DNA of 16,377 bases from a virus. Lineage: Duplodnaviria; Heunggongvirae; Uroviricota; Caudoviricetes. Position numbers and translations under genes: made by a program. The notes beneath the pieces were generated by a model, which had not been told where the DNA came from, did not search any database, and worked only from the letters and a program-made list of their open reading frames with translations. Positions 1 through 15,571 of this stretch are shown piece after piece. Position 1 is the first letter of the stretch; each line of letters opens with the position of its first letter. The stretch lies in IMG/VR virus record IMGVR_UViG_2713896900_000010; one strand, given 5' to 3'.

Positions 1-348
1 CTACTGCATACGGCGCTGTTGCTGCTTTTCTGTATGCACGCGTTTTACTATCTTATAAATCCATTGCAGCGTCAGATTATATTTCTTCGCTAATTCGGCG
101 TAGTTGCGCCCATCGCACTCGCTATAGATTTGATAGTCCCGCTCCGAGGCTCGCCTGGCGATTCCTTTTGGAAAATAAATGCTTTGTCCGCCCCAGTTTC
201 GCATCATGCGATCGGCAATGGCATAGCCAACATTTTCCGCAGATGAGCTATCCAGATTGATGCTCTCAATCAGAACTTGCGAAGCATGAAACGCCAAATC
301 GTTAATGATCTCCGGTGTCCGGGTCATCTCTTTTGCTTTTTGTATCAT
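1..348 (-). CDS. Mor/C-family transcriptional activator (115 aa)
   Basis: Complete minus-strand ORF (ATG at 348-346, stop at 3-1) with GGAG 7 nt upstream of the start. The C-terminal half (GGQSIYFPKG...DGRNYAELAKKYNLTLQWIYKIVKR) follows the conserved HTH region pattern I recall for phage Mu Mor/C activators (GGxxxYIPxG...NGRNxxEL...Y...T...YK). Recalled similarity, not a database hit. Confidence 0.75.
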   Translation of the reverse strand: MIQKAKEMTRTPEIINDLAFHASQVLIESINLDSSSAENVGYAIADRMMRNWGGQSIYFPKGIARRASERDYQIYSECDGRNYAELAKKYNLTLQWIYKIVKRVHTEKQQQRRMQ

Positions 349-903
349 TTTTCATCTCCATATATCTTGCACCCTGTATGGACTCTGATGTGAGTTACAC
401 CACGGATATCCGCTAAGTTGGTGCAATTACTGCTTTTCAATACATTCAACACGCAAATAAATAATCACAATGTATATGCAATAAAAATTAAAACGAATTA
501 TAAATTCACAAAACAAATATATTATTTTCATTACATGTCTTATCAACAGGAGTGCCATTTTACACGATACTGTATACATATACAGTGCTATTTATCATTT
601 TTATCGCCTACTTTTCAAAAAGCTCGTTTCCCTCACAGTCGAGGATTTTTTTAAACAAACTTTAAAAATCAAATAAGTAACGACCATGATTGCAATATGT
701 CATCCCCTTCATTACACATAACGCAGGATTTATCTAACTGGCAGCCATTTTATCCTTAGTTCTCTATTTTGAGTTGGGAGATTAATTGGCGAACATGTTA
801 ATTCGAAGAGAACACATTTTTTAAAGTTATTTATTAAAGCTTTTTTCATTCTTCAGCAAAGAGATAAGCAGACACTGGTATCTCACTTATCAGGAGATAT
901 CGT
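349..903. promoter_or_regulatory. AT-rich divergent intergenic control region between the activator gene and the lysis/tail genes
   Basis: 555 bp at roughly 30% GC versus about 50-55% in flanking genes; many A/T tracts. The only ORF here (418-654) has no RBS and a low-complexity product. Contains the LexA-box-like palindrome at 568-587. Confidence 0.5.
568..587. promoter_or_regulatory. LexA (SOS) box-like operator
   Basis: TACTGTATACATATACAGTG matches the enterobacterial SOS box consensus TACTGT(AT)4ACAGTA at 18 of 20 positions, including both CTGT and ACAG half-sites with exact 8 bp spacing; the arms ACTGTATA/TATACAGT are a perfect inverted repeat. Which promoter it controls cannot be resolved from sequence alone. 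Confidence 0.6.
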
Positions 904-1191
904 ATGAAAAAAATCACTTTTCCCCGTCTTTCCGGTTGGCTGGCTGCAGCCATTGCTCTGATTGCATTGATCGGCTGGACATCTTCAGCACAAATTCCGG
1001 TCGTCATTTATAAACTAAGCCTGGTTTCACTTTCCGCAGTGCTGGGATACTGGCTCGATCGTAGTTTGTTCCCCTGGGCACGGCCTGACTTTTTTTGCCC
1101 CAGGAAGGAACCGCGTTGCTACGCAGCGGCAATGATTCGTCGCGCCATCATCGTGGCTGCAGTCTGCCTTTCCGTCGCGTTAGGGCTATAG
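904..1191 (+). CDS. Putative holin / lysis membrane protein (95 aa, about 3 predicted transmembrane segments)
   Basis: AGGAG 7 nt upstream of ATG; MKK start; three hydrophobic stretches (WLAAAIALIALIGW, IPVVIYKLSLVSLSAVLGYWL, AIIVAAVCLSVALGL); its stop overlaps the start of the downstream endolysin (TAGTGATG). Function inferred from size, topology and position. Confidence 0.5.
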   Translation: MKKITFPRLSGWLAAAIALIALIGWTSSAQIPVVIYKLSLVSLSAVLGYWLDRSLFPWARPDFFCPRKEPRCYAAAMIRRAIIVAAVCLSVALGL

Positions 1192-1193
1192 TG

Positions 1194-1799
1194 ATGTGGC
1201 TAAAATATATCGCGCCTATGATTATTTTCGTTCTTTTCCCGCTTAACGCGTCTGAACCACCACAAGCCTCTCTGGCATGGAGAAATGAATTGATTCGTAC
1301 CGCCCGAGAAGTCTGGGGACTGAACGCTCCGGTGGCTGACTTTGCCGGGCAATTACACCAGGAGTCCGCCTGGCAGCCAATGGTACGTTCCCCCGTTGGC
1401 GCACAAGGTATGGCGCAATTTATGCCTGCCACAGCGACATGGATAAGCCAACTGTATCCACAGCTACATGAAAACAAACCGTATAACCCAACCTGGGCAA
1501 TCCGGGCGTTGGTACAGTACGACCAGCATTTATGGAACAACATCTCTGCAAAAAATGATTGTCAACGTATGGCGTTTACTCTAAGCGCCTATAACGGTGG
1601 TCAGGGTTGGATTAACCGGGATAAAAAACTGGCGACAACAAAAGGGTTAAATGCCGCCATCTGGTTTGGTCATGTTGAGCAAGTCAACGCCGGGCGCAGC
1701 GCCGCAAACTGGCGAGAAAATCGTCACTATCCGAAGATGATTCTCTATCAACACGCCGCCCGCTACTTACTCTGGGGACAGGCAAGCTGTCTTCACTAA
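1194..1799 (+). CDS. Endolysin, soluble lytic transglycosylase (SLT domain) with N-terminal signal peptide or SAR domain (201 aa)
   Basis: Contains hallmark SLT motifs (catalytic-Glu context LHQESAWQP; GMAQFMPATA; AYNGG). The ORF track extends it to 1095, but the ATG at 1194 is coupled to the upstream stop, has AGGG upstream, and is followed by a hydrophobic N-terminus (MWLKYIAPMIIFVLFPLNA|SEPP). Confidence 0.8.
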   Translation: MWLKYIAPMIIFVLFPLNASEPPQASLAWRNELIRTAREVWGLNAPVADFAGQLHQESAWQPMVRSPVGAQGMAQFMPATATWISQLYPQLHENKPYNPTWAIRALVQYDQHLWNNISAKNDCQRMAFTLSAYNGGQGWINRDKKLATTKGLNAAIWFGHVEQVNAGRSAANWRENRHYPKMILYQHAARYLLWGQASCLH

Positions 1800-1811
1800 T
1801 CAGAGGGGCCG

Positions 1812-2126
1812 ATGAAACTCAGTATCGATTTTTGGGAAGTGATCTCCTTTATGCTTTCATTCGTTGGATTAATGTTTGCTGCCGGAAAATTGCTGTTAGC
1901 GCAAATTGAAAAAAGACTTAATGAGCGTTTTGAGTCCCTGGAAAATGCCCGCAGGGAATCAGAAACAAGCTGGTCGAAACTGGAAAGAGAATTTCTCGAA
2001 TTTCGTGCCGAACTTCCACTGTATTATGTCCGCAGAGAGGATTATCTTCGTGGACAAGCAGTATTAGAAGCAAAGCTGGATGCCTTATATAGCAAAATAG
2101 AGTTATTACAACGTGGCAGTTATTAA
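1812..2126 (+). CDS. Lysis-cassette accessory protein; N-terminal transmembrane anchor plus coiled coil (i-spanin-like or releasin-like), 104 aa
   Basis: GAGGGG RBS 4-9 nt upstream; one N-terminal hydrophobic helix (VISFMLSFVGLMFAAGKLLL) followed by a charged heptad-like region; position immediately after the endolysin. Function is an inference. Confidence 0.45.
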   Translation: MKLSIDFWEVISFMLSFVGLMFAAGKLLLAQIEKRLNERFESLENARRESETSWSKLEREFLEFRAELPLYYVRREDYLRGQAVLEAKLDALYSKIELLQRGSY

Positions 2127-2130
2127 ATAC

Positions 2131-2165
2131 ATCCCCACCTTTACGTAAGTGTGGGGATTTTTTAT
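2131..2165 (+). terminator. Rho-independent terminator after the lysis cassette
   Basis: Inverted repeat ATCCCCAC (2131-2138) / GTGGGGAT (2151-2158) followed by a run of six T (2158-2163), 5 nt after the stop codon of the 1812-2126 gene. Confidence 0.6.
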
Positions 2166-2272
2166 AACCATTCAATTTTTTCTCTAAATCACATTAAAAG
2201 ATTCTTCACTCTCACTGCTTCAGAATACATTTCAACGATAACGAAGTGAGCGGTAATTAAGGTACACCTCAT

Positions 2273-2728
2273 ATGAAAATTTTATCTGTAATGAATTATG
2301 TCGTGGTCAGATTACGTGATCGGCATCCTGAAATGGACATATTCATTTCATCTACGGATGCCCAAAAATATATTCCACAGACACAACAGATTACGGTGAT
2401 TATTAATTATAGCGGTTCTGTCTTCACCACGCCCGAAAGTAGTGATGCCATTGTACAACAGCAAATACTCCGCTTAACCGCCACCGTTATTGTTGGCAAA
2501 AATTGTGATGCGTTAAACGCACTTGATCACATACGCAGCGCATTGGGAGGCCTTCAGCCTCCTGATTGCGATCATCTTATTTGGCTTGAAAAAGAAATTA
2601 ATACGGGTGAGAGCGACGGTTTCTGCCGCTACATCCTGGAAATGGCGACCAGCTCGCTGTTTATCGCTGAACAGGACAGCACGGATCTTCCCCTGCTTAC
2701 TGAAGTTAATTACGAGGAAACTGAATGA
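2273..2728 (+). CDS. Hypothetical protein at the head-proximal end of the tail operon (151 aa); possible tail completion / sheath terminator-type protein
   Basis: ATG with AAGG upstream; first gene after the terminator; stop overlaps the next start (ATGA); occupies the position held by small tail-completion genes upstream of the sheath in Mu-type clusters. No motif recognised. Confidence 0.45.
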   Translation: MKILSVMNYVVVRLRDRHPEMDIFISSTDAQKYIPQTQQITVIINYSGSVFTTPESSDAIVQQQILRLTATVIVGKNCDALNALDHIRSALGGLQPPDCDHLIWLEKEINTGESDGFCRYILEMATSSLFIAEQDSTDLPLLTEVNYEETE

Positions 2729-2922
2729 AATATATCTACAACGGTCCGGCAAGCGGCGTCACCCTTGCCGACGGTCAAGAAATCTTATTATGGCCGAACA
2801 GTGAAATTGATCTGCCAGAAGACAATGAGTGGGTTATGACCATGATTGCCCGAAATCACTTGATTCTCATCATTCCCCAGGAAGAACAAAATAACGTAGA
2901 GGAAATTGTACATGGCAGCTAA
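2725..2922 (+). CDS. Small hypothetical protein (65 aa), translationally coupled between the upstream ORF and the sheath gene
   Basis: GAGGAAA RBS, ATGA overlap with the upstream stop, and its own stop overlaps the sheath start region. No recognisable motif. Confidence 0.4.
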   Translation: MKYIYNGPASGVTLADGQEILLWPNSEIDLPEDNEWVMTMIARNHLILIIPQEEQNNVEEIVHGS

Positions 2923-4333
2923 TTATCTGCACGGTGTAGAAACCATTGAAATTGAAACCGGCCCGCGTCCGGTAAAAGCAGTAAAATCTGCTGTAATCGC
3001 TTTAATCGGTACCGCTCCCTGTGGCCCGGTAAACCAACCGACGCTGTGCCTTTCTGAAAGTGACGCGGCACAGTTTGGATCGACTCAGGCTAACTTTACG
3101 ATCCCGCAGGCGCTGAAGGCGATTTATGATCACGGTGCCGGTACAGTGGTGGTAATTAATGTGCTGGATCCAGTAAAACATGGACTACACATTACCAATG
3201 AAACCATTACGTTCAATAGTGACGATAAAGCTAAATTAACTCATCCGGGGGTAAGTTCGGTAACGCTAAGAGCAAGTATCAGTTCCACTACATACAAAAA
3301 TACATCATACAGCGTTAATGCCGCTGACGGCGTTATTACCCGTACAGGAACTGAAATTGCGGCAGGAGCAAAGGTTTACGCGACTTATACCTATGTTGAC
3401 CCTACAAAGGTCACCGCAGCCGATATTATCGGGGCCGTTAATACCGCAGGCGATCGCACGGGGATGAGGCTCCTTCAGGACACTTATAACTTGTATGGTT
3501 TCTACGCCAAAATTCTGCTGGCACCCGTTTTTTGTACGCAAAAATCAGTGACTACCGAGCTGATTGCACAAGCGGAAAAACTCGGTGCGATTACCTACAT
3601 TGATGCCCCAATTGGGACTACATTCCAGCAGGTATTGGCTGGACGCGGTTCGCAAGGCGCAATCAACTTCAATACCAGCTCTGATCGTGCACGTTTATGC
3701 TACCCACACGTCAAAGTTTACGATGGCATCACTAACCAGGAAATTCTTGAACCTCTCTCTTCGCGCGCTGCCGGGCTACGTGCCAAAGTAGACCTCGAAA
3801 AAGGTTTCTGGTGGAGCAACTCAAACCAGGAAATTCAGGGTATTACCGGTATCGAACGTTCGCTTTCCGCAATGATTGATGATCCACAAAGCGAAGTGAA
3901 TCAGCTCAACGAAAACGGTATTACCACTATTTTCAATAGTTATGGTTCTGGTCTGCGCCTGTGGGGCAACCGCACAGCGGCATGGCCAACCGTGACTCAT
4001 ATGCGTAACTTTGAAAACGTTCGCCGGACAGGCGATGTAATTAATGAGTCAATCCGTTATTTCAGTCAACAGTATATTGATATGCCGATCAATCAGGCAC
4101 TGATTGACGCGCTGACCGAATCGGTAAATACCTGGGGCCGAAAACTGATTGCCGACGGCGCACTGCTTGGCTTTGAGTGCTGGTACGATCCGGCGCGAAA
4201 TTCACCGGCTGAACTCAGTGCCGGGCATTTATTGCTCAGCTATAAATTTACCCCACCGCCGCCGCTGGAACGTCTGACGTTTGAAACTGAAATTACCTCT
4301 GAATATTTAGTCTCTCTGGAGAGCAATCGCTAA
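2912..4333 (+). CDS. Contractile tail sheath protein (Mu L / P2 FI-like), about 473 aa
   Basis: Size and position immediately upstream of the tube gene; overall sequence character typical of myovirus sheath proteins. Preferred start is the ATG at 2912 (GAGGAAA 7 nt upstream) rather than the TTG at 2906 reported by the ORF track. Confidence 0.85.
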   Translation: MAANYLHGVETIEIETGPRPVKAVKSAVIALIGTAPCGPVNQPTLCLSESDAAQFGSTQANFTIPQALKAIYDHGAGTVVVINVLDPVKHGLHITNETITFNSDDKAKLTHPGVSSVTLRASISSTTYKNTSYSVNAADGVITRTGTEIAAGAKVYATYTYVDPTKVTAADIIGAVNTAGDRTGMRLLQDTYNLYGFYAKILLAPVFCTQKSVTTELIAQAEKLGAITYIDAPIGTTFQQVLAGRGSQGAINFNTSSDRARLCYPHVKVYDGITNQEILEPLSSRAAGLRAKVDLEKGFWWSNSNQEIQGITGIERSLSAMIDDPQSEVNQLNENGITTIFNSYGSGLRLWGNRTAAWPTVTHMRNFENVRRTGDVINESIRYFSQQYIDMPINQALIDALTESVNTWGRKLIADGALLGFECWYDPARNSPAELSAGHLLLSYKFTPPPPLERLTFETEITSEYLVSLESNR

Positions 4334-4857
4334 TGGCTGGAAAAATTCAAATTAACCGTATTACCAACGCCAATATTTATCTCGATGGTAATAATCTTTT
4401 AGGCCGTGCAACAGAAATTAAATTGCCAGATGTCAGTTTAATTATGCAGGAACATAAAGCACTGGGCATGGTGGGTAAAATAGAACTCCCGGCTGGTTTC
4501 GATAAACTGGAGGGGGAAATTAAATGGAACTCCTTTTACCAGGACGTAATGCGTAAAACGGCAAACCCGTGGCAGGCTGTAGCATTACAGTGTCGCTCCA
4601 GTATCGATTGTTATAACTCTCAGGGGAAAGCGAATCAATTAGCGTTAGTCACACATTTAACCGTGATGTTTAAAAAAAATCCACTGGGCACATTTAAACA
4701 GAATGAAAACCCGGAATTCAGCAGCGCCTTTGGCTGCACTTATATTAAACAAGTAGTCGATGGTGAAACGCTGCTTGAACTGGATTATATGGCGAATATT
4801 TTCCGCGTTAACGGCGTGGATCAATTAAGTACCTATCGCAATAACATCGGTGGCTAA
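4333..4857 (+). CDS. Tail tube protein (Mu M / P2 FII-like), 174 aa
   Basis: TAATG stop/start overlap with the sheath gene; size and position canonical for a tube protein following the sheath. Confidence 0.8.
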   Translation: MAGKIQINRITNANIYLDGNNLLGRATEIKLPDVSLIMQEHKALGMVGKIELPAGFDKLEGEIKWNSFYQDVMRKTANPWQAVALQCRSSIDCYNSQGKANQLALVTHLTVMFKKNPLGTFKQNENPEFSSAFGCTYIKQVVDGETLLELDYMANIFRVNGVDQLSTYRNNIGG

Positions 4858-4861
4858 GTTA

Positions 4862-4881
4862 TTCGGGGCTACGGCCCCGAA
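4862..4881 (+). other. Intercistronic stem-loop between the tube and chaperone genes
   Basis: Perfect 8 bp GC-rich stem TTCGGGGC / GCCCCGAA with a 4 nt loop (TACG), 5 nt after the tube stop codon; no following U-tract, so more likely an mRNA-stability or attenuation element than a full terminator. Confidence 0.5.
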
Positions 4882-4907
4882 CTCCGAAAAATAAATAAGG
4901 ATACAAA

Positions 4908-5225
4908 ATGAAAGAGCATTATATCTTACAGTTTCCCTTTACGTCGGCAGCAGGAAATAATATCGACACGCTACAATTACGTCGCCTGAAAGTCAAAGAT
5001 ATGCGTAATGCACGCCGGGTCAGCGAAAAGCCGGAAGAATGGGATGAACCGCTAATGGCAGCGATGACCGGGCTGGTACCAGAAGATTTAGCTGAAATGG
5101 ATTTGCTGGATTACCAGGCGTTGCAGAAACGATTTCAATCCATGCTTACCGTGGCTACAGAATCCCCCCTTGCTATGGCAGGCAATGGCGCTACTGGCGA
5201 GATGGTTTCGCTTTCCACCCAGTGA
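4908..5225 (+). CDS. Tail assembly chaperone, P2 gpE-like (105 aa)
   Basis: AAGGAT RBS; size and position between tube and tape measure; residue pattern resembles P2 gpE as I recall it. A possible frameshift extension is described in the findings. Confidence 0.6.
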   Translation: MKEHYILQFPFTSAAGNNIDTLQLRRLKVKDMRNARRVSEKPEEWDEPLMAAMTGLVPEDLAEMDLLDYQALQKRFQSMLTVATESPLAMAGNGATGEMVSLSTQ

Positions 5226-5300
5226 GATTGACTCGCTCACGATAGATGACTTTAGTCACTGGCTGGATGAAGCCAGCGCTCAAATAAAAATCGAATATGA

Positions 5301-5323
5301 CTCGCAGACCTGATGTCTGCGAG
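5301..5323 (+). other. Stem-loop in the chaperone to tape-measure spacer
   Basis: Perfect 9 bp inverted repeat CTCGCAGAC / GTCTGCGAG with a 5 nt loop (CTGAT), followed by TTCTTC; the loop contains the stop codon of the +1-frame extension ORF. Confidence 0.45.
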
Positions 5324-5413
5324 TTCTTCAAAGCTCGCCAGGTTTATTTCTTCCCAGCCCATTTTTCAGAAAACTAACCAGCGGGCCATCACCAATCTAT
5401 AAGAGAAACAATT

Positions 5414-7789
5414 TTGGCCAACGATATTATTACCCAGCTTCAGACGCGTAATGAGACGTTGACGCAGGCAATAGCCCGTTACGGCTCACTCAACGCCAGA
5501 ACATTGTTAGCACTCTCTTCTCAGCAAGCGGCAGTAATCAAACTAACGCAGCAACTTGCCGATTCCGCTCTCCGCCTGGAGGAAAATAGCCGAAACCGCG
5601 CTGATCTGATGGAGAAAACCCAAACATTTGCCGGGCAATTTAGCAAAGTATTCAATGTTGAAATCCTTGACTGGAAGTTGCCGTATGAGTTTCAGGACAA
5701 CATGGTCAATTTGGCGACCAAAGGTGGGATGAATGATACAACCCGCGAGACACTCAGCCTTAATCTGCGCGACTGGAGCATGGATTTTAACCAGCAGCAG
5801 ACCACCTTACAGAACGCAGCCCAGGTGCTAATCGAAGGTAATTTGTCGTCGATGCAGGATCTCAACCGTTATATGCCGGAGATCGCCAAAGCGGCCACCA
5901 CCACGCGCGAAAGTGCTGAAACATGGGCGAATGCCGCGCTCGCGACTCATGATCGACTGAATATTGCGCCAGAAAATTTCCACGCCGCGCAAAACATGAT
6001 GTACGGCATTAGCAAAAACGGTGGGCCTACCGTTGCCGGGCAAACACAGTGGATAGACAAATTTGCAGTTAAAACTGGCGCACAGGGTTTAGAAGGTATG
6101 GCTGAACTGACCGCCACAATGCAGATCGCAATGAAAAATGGTGCCAGCGCCAGTGTGGCGGCGGAGAATTTCGACCACTTTCTGCAAACCATCTTTTCGA
6201 AAAAAACCGATAACTGGTTCGTCAGCCAGGGCGTCGATCTGCAAGGCTCTCTGCTTGAACATCAGCAAAACGGCATGGGTGTTAGCGAAGCCATGATTCA
6301 TATCGTGCAAACGCAACTTGAGAAGATGAATCCGGCGATCCTCGACACCTTCAAACGCACCATGCAAATTGAAGATTTATCTGCTCGCAGCAACGCACTG
6401 CAATCGATAGTGACGCAATTTAATCTGGGCGAAATGTTCGGCGATGCGCAAACAGTGGAATTCCTGGCACCTGCGCTGGCGAATATGGAAGAGTATCGCC
6501 AGTTAAAAGCCTCCGCCATGCAAGACAGCGGTAAGAATCTGATTGACAACGATTTTTCTGTGCAGATGGCCTCGCCCATTGAACAAACTAAAACGTTACA
6601 ACTGGCGTTAAATGATTTATGGCTCAGCATTGGCTTGCAATTAATGCCGCTGATTGGCGAGTTGGCGCAAAGCCTTACTCCGGTGATTCGCCAGTTCAGC
6701 GCCTGGCTACGTGAACACCCGGCGCTGGTGCAAAACATTGCGAAAATCGTCGGAGCGATTTGGCTGTTTAACGGCGCACTGAATGTTTTAAAGCTGGGCG
6801 CGAACGTCATCGCCTCGCCGTTTATTCGTCTGGTCGATATCTTCCTGAAAGTCAGGGCAAGTCTGACGCTCACAGGCGCGGCAAGTAAGATGCTATCAGC
6901 GGTTAAGTCATTATATAACGGCGCAAAATGGCTAACGCAACTGCTTGGCCGTGGCCTGATTGGCGCATTGAAACTGGCAGGTCAGACCGTCTTCTGGTTG
7001 GGTAGAGTTTTATTGATGAATCCCATTGGTCTGGTCATCACCGCGATTGCGGGCGCTGCTTATCTGATCTATCGCCACTGGGAACCTATCTCCAGATTCT
7101 TTTCCGCCATCTGGCAACGTATCACCACGGCCTTTGACGGCGGCATTGCAGGGATTTGCCGGTTAATTCTCGACTGGTCGCCGCTGGAGTTGTTCTACAG
7201 CGCCTTTTCCAGTGTGATGAATTGGTTTGGTGTCGAGATGCCTGCAAGTTTTAGCGAGTTCGGCAGCAATCTTCTGGGCAGTCTGGTTGACGGCATAATG
7301 AATGCTTTCCCCGCTCTGAAAGGCATTATTGATCAGGTCAAAAACGCCTTACCGGACTGGCTAAAAACCACGATGGGTATTAGCACAGAAGGATCGGCTA
7401 CGGCTGTTACAAGCACGACGAATACCGCATCAATCTCCCCCACAACCGTTGTTCCAGGCGTTGCCGGAGCGATTTTAACGCCTCCTGTGGGCAAACAACT
7501 CGCGCCATCCAGTAAAACGACAACGTCGCCATCGACACCAGCGGCAAAAAATACAGCCGCCAAACCCGCATCGGCCTCTTTACCTGGTAAATCTGTAACC
7601 AAACCGGCGACGCTCCCCTCCCGTTCCTCTGGAAAAGTTCAGGTGAATTTTTCGCCACAAATTACCGTGCAGAGTAACGGACAAAACACCACTAAAGACA
7701 TTCAGAACGTGTTGACGATAAGTAAACGCGAACTGGAAAGAATGATTAACGACGTAATGGCGCAACAACAGCGCCGGGGGTATGCCTGA
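5414..7789 (+). CDS. Tail tape measure protein (791 aa)
   Basis: Largest gene of the cluster, directly after the chaperone; coiled-coil-rich N-terminal half, hydrophobic segments in the middle/C-terminal part, Ser/Thr/Pro/Ala-rich tract near the C-terminus. The first in-frame start after the upstream stop is a TTG at 5414 with a weak AAGAG motif upstream. Confidence 0.85.
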   Translation: MANDIITQLQTRNETLTQAIARYGSLNARTLLALSSQQAAVIKLTQQLADSALRLEENSRNRADLMEKTQTFAGQFSKVFNVEILDWKLPYEFQDNMVNLATKGGMNDTTRETLSLNLRDWSMDFNQQQTTLQNAAQVLIEGNLSSMQDLNRYMPEIAKAATTTRESAETWANAALATHDRLNIAPENFHAAQNMMYGISKNGGPTVAGQTQWIDKFAVKTGAQGLEGMAELTATMQIAMKNGASASVAAENFDHFLQTIFSKKTDNWFVSQGVDLQGSLLEHQQNGMGVSEAMIHIVQTQLEKMNPAILDTFKRTMQIEDLSARSNALQSIVTQFNLGEMFGDAQTVEFLAPALANMEEYRQLKASAMQDSGKNLIDNDFSVQMASPIEQTKTLQLALNDLWLSIGLQLMPLIGELAQSLTPVIRQFSAWLREHPALVQNIAKIVGAIWLFNGALNVLKLGANVIASPFIRLVDIFLKVRASLTLTGAASKMLSAVKSLYNGAKWLTQLLGRGLIGALKLAGQTVFWLGRVLLMNPIGLVITAIAGAAYLIYRHWEPISRFFSAIWQRITTAFDGGIAGICRLILDWSPLELFYSAFSSVMNWFGVEMPASFSEFGSNLLGSLVDGIMNAFPALKGIIDQVKNALPDWLKTTMGISTEGSATAVTSTTNTASISPTTVVPGVAGAILTPPVGKQLAPSSKTTTSPSTPAAKNTAAKPASASLPGKSVTKPATLPSRSSGKVQVNFSPQITVQSNGQNTTKDIQNVLTISKRELERMINDVMAQQQRRGYA

Positions 7790-8742
7790 TGTATGCCGTT
7801 TTAGGAGAGATTGAATTTAAGGTTGTCACATTCTGGGACGGCTTTAAAAGCACAATGGGCGTGGACTACGCCACACATGCCCGTATAGAAGGCAAACCCG
7901 GCGTGCAGTTTATTGGCGATAAGCTGGATATGCTGGCACTGGAATTTTCCTTGCACAGCCAGTTTTGCCAACCCACAACAGAGCTGAATCGACTGCGTGA
8001 AGCCATGCTTACCCACAAAGCGATGGCTCTGGTGTTTGGCAATGGCGATTATCGCGGCTGGTTTGTGATTACGGAGCTAACCGCCACCCACCAGCACACC
8101 GATCCCTGGGGCAATGTGATTGCTCAAAGCGGAACAATGTCGCTCCAGGAGTACACCGGCGCTCCTAAAAATCCACTCTTGCCCCCGGCAATTACTACCC
8201 AAGACCCGAATATTGACGAAAAGGCGAGCGATTTTCCAGACATGGTGGAGTCCTGGTTTGATCAGATATTGAACGCCATTGAAGAAGGTATGCGTAAGGC
8301 CAAAGAGATGCTCGATGAGCTGACTCAAGCCATTGAAGATATTAAAAAAACGGTGGCAAAAGTGAAAGCACTGGTTAAAGAGGCCAAAGCGTTAAAAGAA
8401 AAGTGTGAAAAGATAATTACGTCGTTGAAAAAGACTATCGACGCCATCGAAACCCTGTTTAAACAGCCCATGGATCTGCAAACGCTGGCAGGACTCCCAA
8501 AAGCGTTGTCGGCGCAGATTAACGCTTTACTGGGTAACATGCCAGGTATCCGGGACTGCGCCAAAGACGCCAGCACGCTGGTTGACCATGCTCAGGCGCT
8601 TTTCGACGACATTACCAACGACATCGCTGAAGCGACGTTCGATAAAGCCGCAACGTTGGTTGAGCAGGCACGAACAACGGTACAACAAACCACTCCCGCA
8701 GTGAGCCAGCTTGCTGCCGCGACCATTACGAGGAGCTGGTGA
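7789..8742 (+). CDS. Tail protein with gpU / Mu N-like N-terminal domain and long alpha-helical C-terminal extension (317 aa)
   Basis: ATGA overlap with the tape-measure stop; N-terminal ~120 aa follows the pattern of P2 gpU-type tail proteins; C-terminal half is Ala/Lys/Glu-rich and heptad-like; occupies the Mu gene N position. Confidence 0.55.
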   Translation: MYAVLGEIEFKVVTFWDGFKSTMGVDYATHARIEGKPGVQFIGDKLDMLALEFSLHSQFCQPTTELNRLREAMLTHKAMALVFGNGDYRGWFVITELTATHQHTDPWGNVIAQSGTMSLQEYTGAPKNPLLPPAITTQDPNIDEKASDFPDMVESWFDQILNAIEEGMRKAKEMLDELTQAIEDIKKTVAKVKALVKEAKALKEKCEKIITSLKKTIDAIETLFKQPMDLQTLAGLPKALSAQINALLGNMPGIRDCAKDASTLVDHAQALFDDITNDIAEATFDKAATLVEQARTTVQQTTPAVSQLAAATITRSW

Positions 8743-8951
8743 TGCGATACCTTGAACATATCACCACCGACGGCGAACGCTGGGATAATCTGGCATGGCA
8801 TTACTACGGCGATGCGCTGGCTTATGAACGCATCATCGCCGCCAATCCACATGTCGCCATTTACCCGGTACTGCCTTCCGGTATTCAACTCATTATTCCG
8901 GTCATTTCCGTCAACAAAACCTTATCGGAGATACCACCATGGCTGAGATAA
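8742..8951 (+). CDS. Tail protein X-like (LysM-like, P2 gpX family), 69 aa
   Basis: ATG at 8742 overlapping the upstream stop, AGGAG 6 nt upstream; the motif LEHITTDGERWDNLAWHYYGD...IIAANPHV resembles the gpX LysM-like signature; sits just before the gpD-like gene as in P2/Mu-type clusters. Confidence 0.65.
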   Translation: MRYLEHITTDGERWDNLAWHYYGDALAYERIIAANPHVAIYPVLPSGIQLIIPVISVNKTLSEIPPWLR

Positions 8952-9979
8952 GCGTATCTGGTGGCGTCTTTGCCACACTCGCGCCCATTTTTACCCTTTG
9001 GTATGGACATAAAGATATCACTTATGACATCACGCCCTATGTCACCAGCATCAGTTACCACGACAGCATCAAAAACGAGTCAGATACCATCGCCATTACA
9101 CTGGATGACACCGATGGACGTTGGATAAAAGAGTGGTATCCCGGCAAAGGCGATACGCTGGCGCTGCATATGGGTTATCAGGGGGAGACGCTCCTCGATT
9201 GCGGTCAGTATATTATTGATAAAATTGATATTTCAGCACCACCTTCCACGGTAAATATTGATGGCATTGCCACTTCCGTCAATCAGGCGCTGCGTACCCG
9301 TAACAGTCAGGGCTTTGAAGAAACGACGCTTTCGGCCATCGCCAGTCGTATCGCGCAAACTCACGGTCTGAAGCTGGTGGGCAAAATCGAGCCGCTGGCG
9401 ATTGACCGGGTGACACAGTACGGCGAAACCGATGTTGGATTTCTCAAGCGTCTGGCCAGCGAATATGGCTATGCCGTGAAAGTGACGACAAAAGAGCTAA
9501 TTTTTTCACATCTGCCGACACTACGCTGCCTGGCGCCAGTGAAAACCATCGACCGCAAAGAGGTTTCGCACTTTACCTTCAAAGACACCATTAATCGCAT
9601 CTACAAGAACGCCACCGTACAGCATCAAAATAGTAAGAAAAAAGAACTGGTTATCTACACTCACGACAGCCAGCAAAAACCGTCAGCCCGTGGAGTCGGC
9701 ACCAGTGCCGACACGTTGAAACTCAACAGCCGGGCGACGGATGTTGGCGCGGCACAGGCAAAGGCCAACGCTGCACTCGACAGCCACAACGAATATCAGC
9801 AAACCGGAACACTCAGGATGATGGGCTGCCCGGAACTGACAACAGGCAATAAAATCGAACTCATTGATTTTGGTATTCTTTCTGGACAATGGCTGATTGA
9901 TAAATCTACTCACAGTTTTGTGCGCAGCGGCTATACCACTGAAATCGACGTTTCGCGCGGGCCAGCAACCAGCCAGTAA
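8939..9979 (+). CDS. Baseplate hub protein, P2 gpD / Mu P-like (346 aa)
   Basis: Size, position after gpU/gpX-like genes, GGAG RBS; overall pattern consistent with late control gene D family tail proteins. Confidence 0.8.
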   Translation: MAEISVSGGVFATLAPIFTLWYGHKDITYDITPYVTSISYHDSIKNESDTIAITLDDTDGRWIKEWYPGKGDTLALHMGYQGETLLDCGQYIIDKIDISAPPSTVNIDGIATSVNQALRTRNSQGFEETTLSAIASRIAQTHGLKLVGKIEPLAIDRVTQYGETDVGFLKRLASEYGYAVKVTTKELIFSHLPTLRCLAPVKTIDRKEVSHFTFKDTINRIYKNATVQHQNSKKKELVIYTHDSQQKPSARGVGTSADTLKLNSRATDVGAAQAKANAALDSHNEYQQTGTLRMMGCPELTTGNKIELIDFGILSGQWLIDKSTHSFVRSGYTTEIDVSRGPATSQ

Positions 9980-9988
9980 GGAGGCACT

Positions 9989-10648
9989 ATGAAGGGAGTA
10001 ACCCGGCAAACGGGGATTATCAGCGATATTGACGAAACCAGCGTTCGGGTGCGAGTCACACTGCCAGAGTGCGACAATCTGAAGAGTAACTGGCTTGCGG
10101 TACTTCAACGTAATTCCCAGGACAATAAAGACTACTGGCTACCGGATATGGGTGAGCAGGTGGAAGTTCTGCTGGACGACAACGGCGAAGATGGCGTGGT
10201 ACTTGGGGCCGTTTATTCTACGGTTGACACCGCGCCTGTGGCCTCGCGAGATAAACGTTACGTCCAGTTTTCTGATGGCGCAGCGTTTGAATATGACCGC
10301 AGCACACACCAGCTTACGATTAACGGCGGTATTGAGAAAATCGTGATTGAGGTTATTGACCGTACTAACCTGACATCACCCAACGTTGAGGTTAAAGCCC
10401 AACAAGTCACCGTGACTTCCGATACCGTCGATATTAAAGCGGCGACAGTGACGGTAGATGCGCCCATGAGCACCTTTACTGGTAACGTCACGGTAATGAA
10501 AAAACTCACCTGGCTGGGTGGCATGGCAGGAAGTGGAGGCATCGGTAACGCCGCCACGATAACTGGCAATGTCAACGTGATTGGTAACGTTCAGGCCAGC
10601 GGCACATTGCAGGATAGCGGTGGTAACTCAAATCACCATTCACACTAG
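9989..10648 (+). CDS. Baseplate central spike, P2 gpV / Mu gp45-like (219 aa)
   Basis: Strong AAGGAGG RBS; N-terminal OB-fold-like region followed by repetitive beta-strand-rich Val/Thr segment (VTVTSDTVDIKAATVTVDAP...) and a C-terminal His cluster (NHHSH) typical of spike apexes. Confidence 0.8.
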   Translation: MKGVTRQTGIISDIDETSVRVRVTLPECDNLKSNWLAVLQRNSQDNKDYWLPDMGEQVEVLLDDNGEDGVVLGAVYSTVDTAPVASRDKRYVQFSDGAAFEYDRSTHQLTINGGIEKIVIEVIDRTNLTSPNVEVKAQQVTVTSDTVDIKAATVTVDAPMSTFTGNVTVMKKLTWLGGMAGSGGIGNAATITGNVNVIGNVQASGTLQDSGGNSNHHSH

Positions 10649-10684: not shown

Positions 10685-10746
10685 ATCAATCAGTTTTCTA
10701 AATCGCTTTAATATCCCCACTGTCCGTTCAGGGCGAAAATAAGCAC

Positions 10747-11106
10747 ATGAACACAAAAACACGCCCCTCAACGCTGCACTGGCAACCCGCCTTGCAGCGG
10801 CCTGAAGAATACGTCTGCGGACTGGATGATATTCACCAGGCAATACACATCATTCTGCGCACGCCGCGCGGCAGTGATCCCCACAGACCGCTGTTTGGCA
10901 GCAACTTGTGGCACTACATCGATTACCCCATCGAGCGGGCAATCCCGCATGTGGTACGGGAGTCGATGGAAGCCATCCGCCAGTGGGAACCGCGATGTCG
11001 GTTGCTGAAGGTAGCACCGATAATCGACGGTGAACATCTGACGTTACGTGTGCAATGGCGCGCCGCTGACGGCGTAATCAACTCAACGGAGGTGTTATGG
11101 CGATAG
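10747..11106 (+). CDS. Baseplate wedge protein, gpW / gp25-like (119 aa)
   Basis: Size and position before the J-like gene; product overlaps the downstream start by 10 nt. Confidence 0.75.
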   Translation: MNTKTRPSTLHWQPALQRPEEYVCGLDDIHQAIHIILRTPRGSDPHRPLFGSNLWHYIDYPIERAIPHVVRESMEAIRQWEPRCRLLKVAPIIDGEHLTLRVQWRAADGVINSTEVLWR

Positions 11107-12212
11107 CCGAACCCAATTTTATTGACCGCGATCCTGCGCAAATTACCAGCGAGATGATTGCGCAATACGAAGATGCCAGCGGTAAAAAACTCTATCCGGC
11201 ACAGGCCGAACGGTTACTCATCGACCTGTTTGCCTATCGTGAAAACCTTGTGCGCATCGCCATTCAGGAAGCGGCGAAACAAAACCTGGTCGCGTATTCC
11301 CGCGCACCAATGTTGGATTATTTAGGGGAGCTGGTGGGTGTTCACCGTTTACCTGCGCAACCGGCAAAAACGACGTTGCAGTTTTCGGTCGTCAGTGCGT
11401 ATACCAGCAATATCCTGATTCCCCAGGGGACGCGGGCCAGTGCCTCTGACAGCGTGATGTTCGCCACCGATGAAGATGTTCTGCTTCCGGCCAGGAGTTT
11501 GCATATCGCCGTTCCGGCCACCAGCCTCGCAGCAGGTGAACAGGGCAATGGCTGGCAGCCTGCACAGATTAGCGCCCTTGTTGACAGGATCGGTTATTAC
11601 GATATCAACGTGACTAATCTGACTCCCACAACCGGCGGTTGTGGTGAAGAGAACGATGATGCACTACGCCAGCGTATACAACTGGCGCCAGAAAGCTTCA
11701 GTAATGCCGGCAGCTATGGCGCATATCGCTTTCATACACTTTCGGTTAGCCAGTCAATTATTGACGTTGCAGTACTGGGGCCAGATGAAGGGTTGCCAGA
11801 AGGCTGCGTCGAGCTCTACCCGCTAACCCTGAATGGTCTGCCGGGAACCGAGCTACTCGCGCAAATTGAACAAGAAGTGAGTAAAGAGAAAAAACGTCCG
11901 CTGACTGACAAAGTAAGTGCGAAATGTGCTCTTAGGGTGCCGTATGAAATTCGTGCGCAGCTAACGCTGTTTACCACCGCCGATCAGGAGACAACACTGG
12001 CTGCGGCGCGTAAAGCGATTAGCCTCTGGACGCAACAGCGGCAGAAACATCTGGGGCAGGACATTGTGCCAAACCAGATAATCAAAGTGTTACAAGTCGA
12101 TGGTGTCTATGACGTTGTGCTGAACATGCCTACAAAACGTATTTTGCAGGCGCATGAATGGGCGGAATGCACTGTAATAGACGTCACGATTGCCGGAGTC
12201 AGCGATGGATAA
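11097..12212 (+). CDS. Baseplate J-like protein (P2 gpJ / Mu gp47-like), 371 aa
   Basis: GGAGGTG RBS; size and position canonical for the baseplate J family; overlaps the downstream start. Confidence 0.8.
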   Translation: MAIAEPNFIDRDPAQITSEMIAQYEDASGKKLYPAQAERLLIDLFAYRENLVRIAIQEAAKQNLVAYSRAPMLDYLGELVGVHRLPAQPAKTTLQFSVVSAYTSNILIPQGTRASASDSVMFATDEDVLLPARSLHIAVPATSLAAGEQGNGWQPAQISALVDRIGYYDINVTNLTPTTGGCGEENDDALRQRIQLAPESFSNAGSYGAYRFHTLSVSQSIIDVAVLGPDEGLPEGCVELYPLTLNGLPGTELLAQIEQEVSKEKKRPLTDKVSAKCALRVPYEIRAQLTLFTTADQETTLAAARKAISLWTQQRQKHLGQDIVPNQIIKVLQVDGVYDVVLNMPTKRILQAHEWAECTVIDVTIAGVSDG

Positions 12213-12837
12213 ATTGCTGCCACCGCCGCCGCTTGCCAGCGATGAGCGTTTTTCAACTCTGGCAAATATCGCCGCCGAACGTTTTGCGCAACTCGATCTG
12301 ACGGCATTAATGATATACCTGGTCGACCTGGTTGATGCTTCGGCATTACCTGCCCTTGCAGAACAATTTCACGTTCAGGGGCTGGAAGGTTGGTTATTTA
12401 CTACTGATGAACAAGAGAAGCGTGAGTTAATTAAGCGAGCCATTGAGTTACATAAATATAAAGGAACAGTTTGGGCGGTACGGCGAGTACTGGAAATACT
12501 CTCATTGCCTGGAACTATTGCCGAATGGTTTGAATATGGCGGGAAAGCTTATTTTTTTAAGGTTGATATAGAACTGGTGGATAAAGGCATGGATGAAAAC
12601 CTTTTCAATGAGTTAGTTGAACTCATTCATGAATATAAAAACACACGTTCAAAACTGGAAGCATTAATCGTCTGGATCATTAACCAAAGTGCTATCCCTG
12701 TTATTAGCTGTGCGCTTTATGGGGGTGAACTGACGACGCTTTTACCTTTCCAGATACGGGAAGTACAACAAAACACAACAATCTTTTACGGAACAGGGCA
12801 ATGGAGCCTTGAAATTACATCTATTTACCCGGAGTAA
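12190..12837 (+). CDS. Baseplate/tail protein I-like (P2 gpI / Mu gp48-like), 215 aa
   Basis: Follows the J-like gene with overlapping coupling and precedes the tail fiber gene, the conserved J-I-H order. Confidence 0.7.
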   Translation: MPESAMDKLLPPPPLASDERFSTLANIAAERFAQLDLTALMIYLVDLVDASALPALAEQFHVQGLEGWLFTTDEQEKRELIKRAIELHKYKGTVWAVRRVLEILSLPGTIAEWFEYGGKAYFFKVDIELVDKGMDENLFNELVELIHEYKNTRSKLEALIVWIINQSAIPVISCALYGGELTTLLPFQIREVQQNTTIFYGTGQWSLEITSIYPE

Positions 12838-12839
12838 TT

Positions 12840-14498: not shown

Positions 14499-14504
14499 TT
14501 AAAA

Positions 14505-15119
14505 ATGACAAAATATGCATGTTTTGATCCTGAAACATTTGTTGTTTTGGACTGGTTCGATACAGAACGTTACAACTATCCCAAAGTAGAACATTTAGTT
14601 GAAATAACTGATCAGCAATGGCAGATATATGCAAGAGATAATATTCCAACTTGGATTAACTGTGAAGATTTATCCTTCATTTCTATGCCACCACCAGATA
14701 AATTTCACAAACTGAAAAAAGGAGAATGGATAGTTGATACAGATTCAATACTTAAATTTATTTCAGAAATAAAAGAAGATATAATAAGAAGAGTAAAATC
14801 CAAACGAGATTACATCACAACCGATTACATCATCCTCAACGGCCATCACTTCCACAGTGATACAAATAGCCGAATCCAACAACTCTCACTCACAAAAATG
14901 GGAGCCGAAAAACAAATTCCGCCAGGTTTAATGTGGAAAACTAAAAATAACGGTCTGATTGAGTTAACCAATGAAATCGCCGCCCAGTTTGAATCCGTCA
15001 CCATGGCTCACGATATGCGCCTGTTTGCCAACGCCCAGCGCCATATTACGGCGGTGGAAGCTCTGGGCGATATTCAGGCGGTGCTCGACTACGACTACTC
15101 CACAGGCTGGCAACCATGA
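14505..15119 (+). CDS. Tail fiber assembly protein (Tfa/U-like chaperone), 204 aa
   Basis: Immediately downstream of the fiber gene; C-terminal half (higher GC) resembles the conserved Tfa domain ending ...DYDYSTGWQP; N-terminal half is low-GC like the fiber C-terminus. Confidence 0.7.
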   Translation: MTKYACFDPETFVVLDWFDTERYNYPKVEHLVEITDQQWQIYARDNIPTWINCEDLSFISMPPPDKFHKLKKGEWIVDTDSILKFISEIKEDIIRRVKSKRDYITTDYIILNGHHFHSDTNSRIQQLSLTKMGAEKQIPPGLMWKTKNNGLIELTNEIAAQFESVTMAHDMRLFANAQRHITAVEALGDIQAVLDYDYSTGWQP

Positions 15120-15571
15120 GTAAAACCACTGTCTGGCTCGCTTGCTATAAAGGCAGAACAGAGCACCGAGGTATTGCGCAACTAGCTGACTGGCTTACCC
15201 GTAAAATCACACGCGGCAGTTATTCCCACTGCGAGTTAGCAGTGGTACATGGTGAAAAAAATTACCTTTGCTACTCTGCATCACTGCGCGATCGCGGTGT
15301 ACGCGGAAAGATAATGCCACTACCGTCAGATAAGTGGGATATGCTGCCGCTCCAGGCTAGCTTTCAGGATGTGGAAGCTTTTTTCCATAAACATAATGGC
15401 AAAAAATACGACTGGCGCGGAGCCTTAGGAATTATCACTGGCAATAAAGAACAGCGCAATCGTCTGTTTTGCAGTGAATTTTGCGCCGAGTTTCTGCAGT
15501 TAAAAGAGAGTTGGCGCTATTCCCCAAACCATTTGTATGCTTTAGTCAGCAGTTGGCAATATCAGCCGTAA
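15116..15571 (+). CDS. Hypothetical Cys/His-rich protein (151 aa), translationally coupled to tfa; possibly a permuted papain-fold (NlpC/P60-like, YaeF/YiiX-type) enzyme
   Basis: ATGA overlap with the tfa stop; the motifs SHCELAVVHG and LFCSEFCAEF put a His upstream of a C-terminal Cys as in permuted NlpC/P60 amidases. Family assignment is tentative and from recall. Confidence 0.45.
   Translation: MSKTTVWLACYKGRTEHRGIAQLADWLTRKITRGSYSHCELAVVHGEKNYLCYSASLRDRGVRGKIMPLPSDKWDMLPLQASFQDVEAFFHKHNGKKYDWRGALGIITGNKEQRNRLFCSEFCAEFLQLKESWRYSPNHLYALVSSWQYQP

Follow-up and report, generated by a model that had tools for sequence, protein, structure and literature searches.

A predicted LexA operator before a Mor-family activator gene in a tailocin-like lysis and tail island of enterobacteria

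How a cluster of phage lysis and tail genes is switched on when no phage repressor accompanies it is the question raised by this locus. The window, by which we mean the whole 16.4-kb stretch of DNA that was analyzed, carries a leftward activator gene and, divergent from it, lysis and tail genes.

1..348, minus strand: mor, encoding a Mor/C-family late transcriptional activator of 115 aa (Pfam PF08765)
904..2126, plus strand: lysis cassette, with genes for a holin (904-1191), an SLT lytic transglycosylase (1197-1799) and a membrane/lipoprotein (1812-2126)
2273..10648, plus strand: tail genes for Gp37, sheath, tube, chaperone, tape measure, GpU-like, X, D and V proteins (Pfam)
10747..15571, plus strand: genes for baseplate W, J and I, tail fibre and fibre-assembly (DUF4376) proteins and one further ORF (Pfam, PHROG)

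The mor product matched PF08765 over profile positions 2-105 of 107 (E=8.2e-38; 129 bits vs a cut-off of 24.9 bits) as well as PHROG 532, 'late transcriptional activator' (E=7e-36), and is 48% identical to BcepMu gp01. The lysis genes matched Holin_2-3 and SLT in Pfam, and the holin, endolysin and lipoprotein families in PHROG. By the genes read, the contractile-tail module and the lysis cassette are both complete, as in an R-type tailocin. Genes for head, packaging, replication, integration or lysogeny were found neither in the window nor in the island of E. coli, which is bounded by lysC and yjbD, and the island encodes no repressor, integrase or transposase, in agreement with the original prediction that the cassette is controlled without a phage repressor in the window. 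The order of the island is lysC, mor and onward to the fibre genes, followed by RlaP, slipin and yjbD. The mor gene is monocistronic and is flanked on one side by lysC and on the other by its own 555-bp control region. Because the island adjoins lysC in the species of the window, E. coli, Salmonella and Enterobacter alike, its chromosomal place is fixed; it is also present in Phytobacter, Dryocola and Superficieibacter. From its gene content, the window is most likely a domesticated, headless tail and lysis island of BcepMu/Mu-like descent, namely an R-type tailocin-like cluster. A Salmonella variant in which the tail genes are deleted also exists.

The control region of mor contains the sequence TACTGTATACATATACAGTG at 568-587, which matches the SOS box consensus TACTGTATATATATACAGTA at 18 of 20 positions, the mismatches being confined to position 10 (C for T) and position 20 (G for A). 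Both this match and the location of the box, between a divergent Mor-like gene (348..1, leftward) and the rightward holin, transglycosylase and tail genes, had been claimed originally and were borne out. An exact CTGT-N8-ACAG occurs in the window only here. To score the site, one of the checks that had been proposed with the original prediction, we used a symmetrised LexA position weight matrix made from 28 E. coli SOS boxes, a list that follows published compilations and in which small errors are possible. The site at 568-587 scored 25.1 bits, compared with a range of 12.8-26.8 bits and a median of 20.4 for the 28 known boxes, and the runner-up in the window scored 8.9 bits, indicating a single box. 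A score of 25.1 bits was reached by none of 5000 dinucleotide shuffles of the intergenic region (32% GC; highest 22.1) and by none of 300 shuffles of the whole window (highest 18.9). When 121 loci (670 kb) were scanned, all LexA matches of at least 15 bits were located at this orthologous place.

About 40 orthologous loci of at least five genera, with Mor proteins that are 79-100% identical, carried the box at the same place, and it was found in every Salmonella-type locus with an intact island that was examined. Across 30 distinct orthologous control regions, CTGT and ACAG were invariant (30/30), and the center of the box (positions 9-12) varied, with changes at positions 9, 10 and 12. Considering that the contact bases are conserved across genera and that the score lies near the top of the known range, strong selection for tight binding can be argued. 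The distance from the box to the mor ATG is constrained, typically to 219-244 bp, and is 291 bp where a 61-bp insertion intervenes. The interval from the box to the holin gene, on the other side, includes a hypervariable stretch, and nothing in it is conserved in Superficieibacter. Every Mor homologue of 66% identity or less, including that of the BcepMu-type phage KP12, lacked a LexA box. An Enterobacter lineage has lost the box and retains an apparently intact cluster, so that LexA control would be dispensable for the island.

Since the region is AT-rich and such palindromes are common in phage control regions, a chance palindrome or an operator of some other protein, with LexA uninvolved, was considered. 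However, the shuffles did not attain the observed score, the LexA consensus is matched at its informative positions, and the variation among orthologues falls where the consensus itself varies. Moreover, Mor is the only DNA-binding protein that the island encodes, and the putative Mor sites look very different. We regard this explanation as highly improbable. All available computational tests support function and, as judged from sequence, the 568-587 site is most probably a real LexA operator.

Which promoter the operator would cover depends on the elements around it.

556..565, adjoining the box: conserved decamer CATTTTACAC, nearly invariant in 27-30 of 30 box-bearing orthologues
559..586, plus strand: putative rightward sigma-70 promoter TTTACA-16-TACAGT, with 9/12 consensus matches and its -10 within the box
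519..546, minus strand: a second leftward candidate promoter, TTGATA-16-TAATAT, clear of the box on its downstream side
349..556, minus strand: putative long mor leader, about 200 nt if the start adjoins the box

The decamer is bordered by a highly variable stretch (548-555). It contains TAAAAT on the minus strand (562..557), a candidate -10 for mor, and TTTACA on the plus strand (559-564), a candidate -35. The leftward -10 TAAAAT that had been predicted beside the box is indeed present (ATTTTA on the plus strand, 557-562), although its coordinates are shifted by one base from the 558-563 given earlier. The decamer can be read as a leftward -10 (TAAAAT) just as well as a rightward -35 (TTTACA-16-TACAGT), and the box overlaps the rightward -10 (TACAGT) as well as the spacer and -35 zone of the candidate leftward TAAAAT promoter. 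For the latter, no recognizable -35 was found, and a generic scan returned the rightward TTTACA-16-TACAGT only. Phylogenetic footprinting was tried as a guide to promoter direction and set aside, since the decamer suits both strands and two clades conflict: the L016/L100 clade has kept the box and lost TAAAAT, and the Enterobacter clade that lacks the box has, in its place, a conserved element that reads as a rightward TATAAT.

These arrangements raise an alternative in which LexA mainly or additionally represses the rightward promoter (-35 TTTACA at 559-564, 16-bp spacer, -10 TACAGT at 581-586). It would produce an approximately 310-nt transcript into the holin and lysin genes, placing the lysis cassette under colicin-like direct SOS control, and the same box might in addition control mor divergently, as at uvrA/ssb. 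The promoter is the only sigma-70 match of at least 9/12 at the box, and it turned up separately in the window, E. coli and Salmonella, with TTTACA invariant or nearly so (28-30 of 30 sequences). The TATAAT of the box-less Enterobacter clade is a perfect match and has a similar spacing to the conserved block downstream, and the L016 clade, without the leftward -10, keeps a 4/6 match to the -35 (ATCACA). In the window, nothing between the box and the holin gene convinces as a terminator; a hairpin at 631-644, considered as an attenuator or terminator to the right of the box, was rejected at just -5.4 kcal/mol (z = -0.26). Against this reading, the DNA downstream of the promoter is hypervariable and, in Superficieibacter, unconserved, and in Salmonella the box is closely followed by hairpins that resemble terminators (-11.3 kcal/mol), which are convincing there only. 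The holin gene already has a strongly conserved activator-type promoter of its own, described below as P1, and making holin and lysin before the tails would be counter-productive.

Published expression data from Salmonella also bear on the direction. In strain 14028, nalidixic acid raised the mor orthologue STM14_5073 from 49 to 204.5 expression units, or 4.08-fold (PMC8072944 Dataset S1). The lysis and tail genes, including the holin and lysin genes next to mor, were outside the nalidixic-acid induced-gene list in this RNA-seq (PMC8072944), which is a population average from a single late time point, so that a subpopulation undergoing lysis could have gone unseen. With mor up and the neighboring holin and lysin genes outside the list, the data fit a leftward LexA-controlled transcript better than a rightward one, and we consider control centered on the rightward promoter rather unlikely. 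In the same experiment, sulA was up 27-fold, ribosomal genes were up as well, and the basal level of mor was not low (PMC8072944). The 4-fold induction of mor is modest for a near-consensus box; the mor orthologue is not among the 48 SOS loci of that study (PMC8072944) and appears in neither the 2003 nor the 2021 list of Salmonella SOS genes.

The second candidate leftward promoter has an AT-rich -10 position that is -10-like in most orthologues, and its -35 is unconserved; it could be a source of LexA-independent basal mor expression. Within the putative mor leader, a profile of 34 orthologous regions revealed conserved short blocks at 419-431, 437-447, 457-463 and 503-510. A conserved RNA structure in the leader was rejected, as RNAalifold on 10 orthologues gave a 5-pair helix of -1.7 kcal/mol virtually without covariation; an inverted repeat, TTGCACC...GGTGCAA, is broken in E. 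coli, and no Rfam family was found in the control region at E<=1. Also rejected were a 50-aa ORF that has its start codon in the box (minus strand, 579..427), which is unconserved and meets a stop after 8 codons in E. coli, an unconserved 11-codon ORF at 686, and a sigma-54 promoter, TGGCAC-N5-TTGA (553-568, minus strand), which has lost its GG in E. coli. In Salmonella, a different ORF is annotated at the place of the 579..427 ORF.

If the operator acts on mor, its effect would reach the lysis and tail genes through sites at which Mor could act, and candidates were found before the holin gene and after each of two terminators.

813..876, plus strand: P1, activator-type late promoter before the holin gene, with motif TTTTTTAAAGTTATTTATTAAAG (815-840), a weak -35 and -10 GACACT (871-876)
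645..672, minus strand: leftward copy of the late-promoter motif, reverse complement GATTTTTAAAGTTTGTTTAAAAAAA, whose core TTTTTAAAGTT is common with P1
2131..2165, plus strand: intrinsic terminator after the lysis cassette, a hairpin (-15.5 kcal/mol, z = -3.5) with a U run behind it
2166..2235, plus strand: P2, late promoter-like region, TTTTTTCTCTAAATCACATTAAAAGATTCTTC, with the motif common to P1 and P3
10654..10683, plus strand: intrinsic terminator after the baseplate V gene, an eight-pair stem and T run of -15.3 kcal/mol (z = -5.0)
10690..10740, plus strand: P3, late promoter-like region, TTTTCTAAATCGCTTTAATATCC, with -10-like GAAAAT

P1 is the most conserved non-coding block of the control region, and its 20-mer occurs once in the window, compared with 0.01 occurrences expected. 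P1, P2 and P3 share a TTTTCTAAA-N6-7-TTAAA-like motif, which is kept in E. coli and Salmonella, and they are without sigma-70 consensus promoters, none being found at P2. The terminator at 2131..2165 and P2 are kept in both E. coli and Salmonella, and P3 is kept in E. coli and, in Salmonella, before gpW. P3 further resembles GCGCTTTAAAATCC, located upstream of the holin gene in phage KP12. Considering that terminators follow both the lysis cassette and gene V and that the shared motif comes after them, the downstream tail genes would need activator-type promoters of their own. The leftward copy at 645..672 may be a site of Mor autoregulation, as its sequence suggests; in the Enterobacter clade, both this copy and P1 have changed to GAAATT.

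The same elements enter into another explanation, in which LexA binds the box and yet shifts mor only a few-fold, so that other inputs decide whether the cassette fires. Such inputs might be growth phase, silencing of the AT-rich region (32% GC) by H-NS, activation of mor by its own product, or a second mor promoter. The Salmonella RNA-seq, with an induction of just 4-fold, substantial basal expression and uninduced late genes, would be in line with this, as would the second candidate leftward promoter outside the box, the leftward late-motif copy upstream of the box and an Enterobacter lineage that manages without the box. However, a minor role for LexA is hard to reconcile with contact bases perfectly kept across genera and a box score near the top of the known range, and the averaged single late time point could have missed the cells that lysed. 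We consider this explanation distinctly unlikely, more so than the rightward promoter.

Taken all together, the best explanation, and one that we hold to be probable on the present sequence comparisons, is that a LexA operator represses mor, whose product in turn activates the lysis and tail genes through a late cascade in a tailocin-like island. In undamaged cells, a LexA dimer on 568-587 would occlude the core promoter that uses the adjacent decamer. Most likely, LexA would act mainly on mor, a monocistronic gene read from the putative leftward -10 TAAAAT at 562..557; in this arrangement, the box would lie over the spacer and the -35 positions, and the A-tract DNA at 588-605 could serve as an UP element. 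Upon DNA damage, RecA would become active, LexA would cleave itself and Mor would be made. Mor would then act at the three late promoters with a weak -35 and a bipartite A/T motif, namely P1 ahead of the holin gene, P2 behind the first terminator and P3 behind the second. Tail particles would be assembled, and lysis of the cell would follow. As such, the SOS response is most likely coupled directly to the activator, and through the activator to lysis and tail synthesis, without a phage repressor. The original prediction had the whole cassette derepressed together with the activator; we infer this extension beyond mor. The proposal that a LexA operator has taken the place of the phage repressor agrees with the conservation of the box, its absence from phage relatives, the gene content and the putative late promoters.

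A more elaborate version seems doubtful to us, though it would accommodate several of the observations above. Here, one box would gate two back-to-back promoters on the shared decamer, leftward for mor and rightward for a lysis leader, and the 645-672 site would let Mor reinforce its own synthesis. Such a LexA-gated feed-forward loop with positive feedback could convert a graded SOS signal into all-or-none suicide in a few cells, and it would have arisen by rebuilding of a Mu-type cascade once the phage repressor was lost, with another rewiring in Enterobacter, where the box has gone.

In the literature searched, neither this island nor any Mor-family gene was described as being under LexA control. 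SOS-inducible tailocins and LexA-controlled phage modules are already known; what would be unusual is a Mu/BcepMu-type late cascade in which the phage repressor and early operon are replaced by one host LexA operator before a Mor-family activator. As Escherichia, Salmonella and related genera keep the arrangement at a single place in the chromosome, it would make a clean example of regulatory domestication. If the proposal is true, a lysis-coupled weapon joins the enterobacterial SOS regulon, and quinolones and other SOS inducers are predicted to trigger the release of tail particles and lysis in carriers. For the evolution of the circuit, natural comparisons are offered by the Enterobacter clade that lacks the box and by the Salmonella variant whose tail genes are deleted.

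Among known systems, the R- and F-type pyocins of Pseudomonas are controlled by the PrtR repressor, which holds down the activator gene prtN, and PrtN activates P-box promoters. These details of pyocin control are established knowledge and draw also on PMC12066065. Like the pyocins, the island combines headless tail genes with a lysis cassette in the chromosome, and the proposed control is likewise a two-tier cascade, where a damage-sensitive repressor governs a small activator gene and the activator serves several motif-sharing promoters. The sensor differs, as that of the pyocins is the cluster-encoded, LexA/cI-like PrtR, whereas the island has no such gene and carries a box for host LexA instead. 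The activators differ as well, since PrtN is unrelated to Mor and the activator here belongs to the Mor/C family.

Colicin operons typically have two overlapping LexA boxes just downstream of the -10, and their toxin and lysis genes are driven directly. The proposed circuit would resemble them in that host LexA directly controls a lysis-coupled, suicidal bacteriocin. In contrast, there is a single box here, 317 bp from the holin ATG, and an activator and three putative late promoters are interposed.

Prophage functions directly repressed by host LexA include tum of coliphage 186, the Gifsy antirepressors, P1 of GIL01 and the prophage endolysins Epel1/2 of ExPEC (PMC3121763, PMC4551915, PMC9621596). 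In these cases, as proposed for the island, host LexA switches a phage-derived module, either replacing a phage repressor or acting upstream of one. Their targets are antirepressors, early promoters and endolysins, and a Mor-family activator governing a tail-only cluster is not among them. The LexA-controlled endolysins of ExPEC probably lie in other prophages, going by the places of the CFT073 genes. Kosakonicin is P2-like, and its paper is silent on regulation.

In the cascade of Mu and BcepMu, the phage repressor acts on the early promoter, from which Mor, then C and then the late promoters are brought into play. The island resembles these phages in its Mor/C-family activator, in late promoters with a weak -35, and in an upstream motif that also precedes the KP12 holin gene, and it shares with BcepMu-type phages the gene order lysis, Gp37, sheath and tube. 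In KP12 and BcepMu, mor is a distal gene of a long early operon, which in KP12 has TTGACA-17-TACAAT beside a putative repressor gene and is without a LexA box. Unlike in these phages, mor of the island is a unit of its own, preceded by 555 bp of control DNA that include a LexA box, and the early, transposition and head genes are gone; a tailocin that has given up the phage early operon would need a new promoter for mor.

One exact CTGT-N8-ACAG occurs in the window, and it is the LexA box of the original prediction, which lies between the leftward activator gene mor and the rightward lysis and tail genes:

568-587: LexA box, 20-mer TACTGTATACATATACAGTG; compared with the E. coli SOS-box consensus TACTGTATATATATACAGTA, its mismatches are confined to positions 10 and 20
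348..1, minus strand: mor, 115 aa, Mor family (Pfam E=8e-38; PHROG 'late transcriptional activator')
Plus strand, separated from mor by a 555-bp gap: lysis genes (holin, SLT transglycosylase, small membrane/lipoprotein)
Plus strand: tail genes, in the order Gp37, sheath, tube, chaperone, tape measure, GpU-like, X, D, V, W, J, I, fibre, and fibre-assembly (Pfam and PHROG matches)

The two mismatches correspond to the claimed 18/20 match. We scored the box with a symmetrised LexA weight matrix built from 28 E. coli boxes of the standard compilations; the matrix serves as a lead and not as a curated standard. The box reached 25.1 bits, inside the range of the 28 boxes (12.8-26.8 bits, median 20.4), and the runner-up in the window reached 8.9. 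A score of at least 25.1 bits appeared in none of 5000 dinucleotide shuffles of the intergenic region (32% GC) and in none of 300 shuffles of the window. The box is real, and AT-richness is not its cause. The observation is confirmed, and its interpretation as LexA control is supported as far as sequence analysis reaches.

The window is a headless phage-tail island, in which genes for heads, packaging, transposition, integration, or a repressor were not found. Among 5426 complete E. coli genomes, 197 contain a related island with 87-88% DNA identity to the window, flanked by lysC and yjbD, and the Salmonella island, the counterpart of STM4198-STM4219, shares ~75% DNA identity with the window. 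Over its first 3348 bases, the window matches NCBI CP025676.1 at 100% identity. Considering that lysC and pgi of L111, a locus 99.8% identical to the window over the island part, are 87% and 94% identical to those of E. coli, the source is a non-coli Escherichia, probably E. albertii. The tail genes and Mor are of BcepMu type: the sheath gene shows ~68-71% DNA identity to its counterparts in BcepMu-like phages, and Mor shares 48% identity with BcepMu gp01. At the far island end, an RlaP-family nucleotidyltransferase gene (15586-16377, minus strand; L001:31719-33643; Pfam E=1e-92) is convergent with the tail genes, and in E. coli a slipin-family gene comes after it. In the Salmonella island, a gtrA/gtrB/gtrC-like O-antigen glucosylation operon has been inserted after the baseplate V gene and before the W gene (L002:27062-29897); speculatively, altered producer LPS could shield the producer from its own particles.

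The comparison set, drawn from genomes, metagenomes, and IMG/VR, comprised 121 related loci with 670 kb of DNA. Wherever Mor was 79-100% identical to that of the window, enough upstream DNA was present, and the cluster was intact, the box was always found at 19.6-29.1 bits, except in one clade and one IS-disrupted copy. It preceded the mor ATG by 219-244 bp, or by 291 bp if a 61-bp insertion separated the two, and all matches of at least 15 bits across the 670 kb fell at this one orthologous position. CTGT and ACAG did not vary among the 30 different control regions with a box, and positions 9, 10, and 12 were freely variable, a pattern that would be expected under selection on LexA contacts. 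Mor homologues of 66% identity or less among the 121 loci had no box. In the exceptional clade, which includes Enterobacter hormaechei (L018, L019, L105, L108, L109, and L119-L121; control region e.g. L119:9496-10000; Mor 83-87% identical), the island is likewise located at lysC and its lysis and tail genes look intact, the best score is 1.5 bits, and TATAAT/AATAAT takes the place of the right half of the box. A Salmonella deletion variant (S. Stanley-type contigs L117 and L118) keeps mor and part of the control region beside a hexapeptide acetyltransferase gene, and the box and the entire lysis/tail cluster are missing. Since this clade and this variant exist, LexA control seems to be a lineage-specific solution, widespread and not universal. 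In an E. coli-like copy (L023:900-3260), mor is cut to 85 codons and a 383-codon ORF, possibly an insertion sequence, stands in place of the control region, without a box.

Expression data were available from PMC8072944, which surveyed the SOS regulon of S. Typhimurium across the genome. One entry of its Dataset S1 is STM14_5073 of strain 14028 (348 nt, 4,451,529-4,451,876, 'putative cytoplasmic protein'), which we regard as the mor orthologue because length and position agree. Strain 14028 presumably carries the box, as do all fetched Salmonella-type loci with an intact island. With nalidixic acid, STM14_5073 rose in RNA-seq from 49.0 to 204.5 (4.08-fold), and it is missing from the study's table of 47 SOS loci, from its 48 SOS genes, and from the earlier Salmonella lists compared there (PMC8072944). 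Considering that sulA and lexA rose further (27-fold and 6.9-fold) and that ribosomal genes rose too (PMC8072944), the increase of mor lends weak support to SOS control. No lysis or tail gene, and none of STM14_5042-5072, is among the induced genes (PMC8072944). The basal mor level suggests a LexA-independent contribution, perhaps from a second candidate promoter at 546..519.

The box adjoins a short element on its left:

556-565: nearly invariant decamer CATTTTACAC

The eight bases left of this decamer were highly variable among the 30 control regions. Read leftward, the decamer contains the proposed -10, TAAAAT (5/6, 562..557), in which case the box lies over the -35 zone and the spacer, and A-tract DNA at 588-605 falls at the UP-element position. 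The same decamer also reads as a rightward -35, TTTACA (5/6), followed after 16 bp by TACAGT within the box. TTTACA-16-TACAGT is the only sigma-70 match of at least 9/12 at the box and was found again in E. coli and Salmonella. That LexA acts on this rightward promoter, exclusively or additionally, appears unlikely, even though the L016 clade, divergent and still with the box, keeps a -35-like ATCACA and has no leftward -10, a rightward TATAAT is conserved at the corresponding position in the Enterobacter clade that lacks the box, and the window has no real terminator from the box to the holin gene. The box-mor distance is constant and the box-holin interval hypervariable, mor has lost its promoter, as phage relatives show, the holin gene is already served by the candidate late promoter P1, and in the Salmonella RNA-seq mor was induced and the holin/lysin genes were not listed as induced. 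On this evidence, mor is probably the main LexA target, and one box serving two divergent promoters is possible. Just right of the box, three GATC (Dam) sites fall within ~40 nt in Salmonella (L002:16620-16660) and at the equivalent place in Phytobacter, which both have, at the same spot, overlapping terminator-like hairpins on both strands; in the window block 617-636, the GATCs are lost and the hairpin is weak. An inverted repeat, TTGCACC...GGTGCAA (367-425), encloses ~45 nt directly before the ribosome-binding site of mor; most orthologues retain the sequence, the repeat is broken in E. coli, and the orthologue comparison revealed no covariation.

Downstream, three candidate late promoters and two terminators were located:

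813-850: block TTTTTTAAAGTTATTTATTAAAG... of P1, then a weak -35 and a -10 GAyACT at 871-876, ~30 bp before the holin ATG
2131-2165: intrinsic terminator 1, ending the lysis cassette (-15.5 kcal/mol, z = -3.5)
2131-2235: P2 region, terminator 1 included, with A/T motif TTTTTTCTCTAAATCACATTAAAAGA after the terminator
10654-10683: intrinsic terminator 2, after gene V (-15.3 kcal/mol, z = -5.0)
10654-10740: P3 region, terminator 2 included, with related A/T motif TTTTCTAAATCGCTTTAATATC after the terminator

The 813-850 block is the strongest conserved non-coding stretch apart from the box, and KP12, a BcepMu-like Klebsiella phage, has a similar motif upstream of its holin gene. The P2 and P3 motifs, both related to the one before the holin gene, recur in E. 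coli and Salmonella as conserved elements, and a sigma-70 consensus promoter is absent from both regions. The cluster is presumably split into three Mor-dependent transcription units. Since three activator-type promoters precede the three units and Mor is the sole encoded regulator, the economical reading is that LexA would repress mor and that Mor, once made, would activate P1, P2, and P3, where we infer that it binds. The late-promoter motif also occurs in a leftward-facing copy, GATTTTTAAAGTTTGTTTAAAAAAA (645-672, minus strand), which, seen from mor, is upstream of the box; Mor could regulate its own gene through this site, which Superficieibacter does not conserve. In the Enterobacter hormaechei-type clade, TTAAAGTT is changed to GAAATT in the P1 motif and in the leftward copy alike.

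In KP12, the Mor homologue is a distal gene of an 8-kb early operon, whose promoter (TTGACA-17-TACAAT) lies beside a divergent putative repressor gene and has no box. The box is thus a derived trait of the tail-only island, gained when the early operon and repressor were lost. The idea of a LexA operator in place of a phage repressor fits the repressor-free window and the box conserved across loci; the island of the Enterobacter clade does without the box. No description of LexA control of this island was found in the searchable full-text literature. That a tailocin should be SOS-induced is expected; the route used and the omission from published SOS regulons are noteworthy. Host LexA is known to control 186 tum, Gifsy antirepressors, GIL01, and ExPEC endolysins directly, and a Mor-family activator of a tail-only cluster is not among the known LexA-controlled prophage functions. 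The proposed circuit descends from the Mu/BcepMu cascade, although the defining arrangement of that cascade, mor inside a repressor-controlled early operon, is absent from the island. It resembles pyocin PrtR-PrtN control in its damage-sensitive repressor, small activator, and shared promoter motifs, whereas the island has no cluster-encoded repressor and its activator is of the Mor family. As in colicin operons, host LexA would be used directly; unlike them, the island has one box in contrast with two overlapping ones and interposes an activator.
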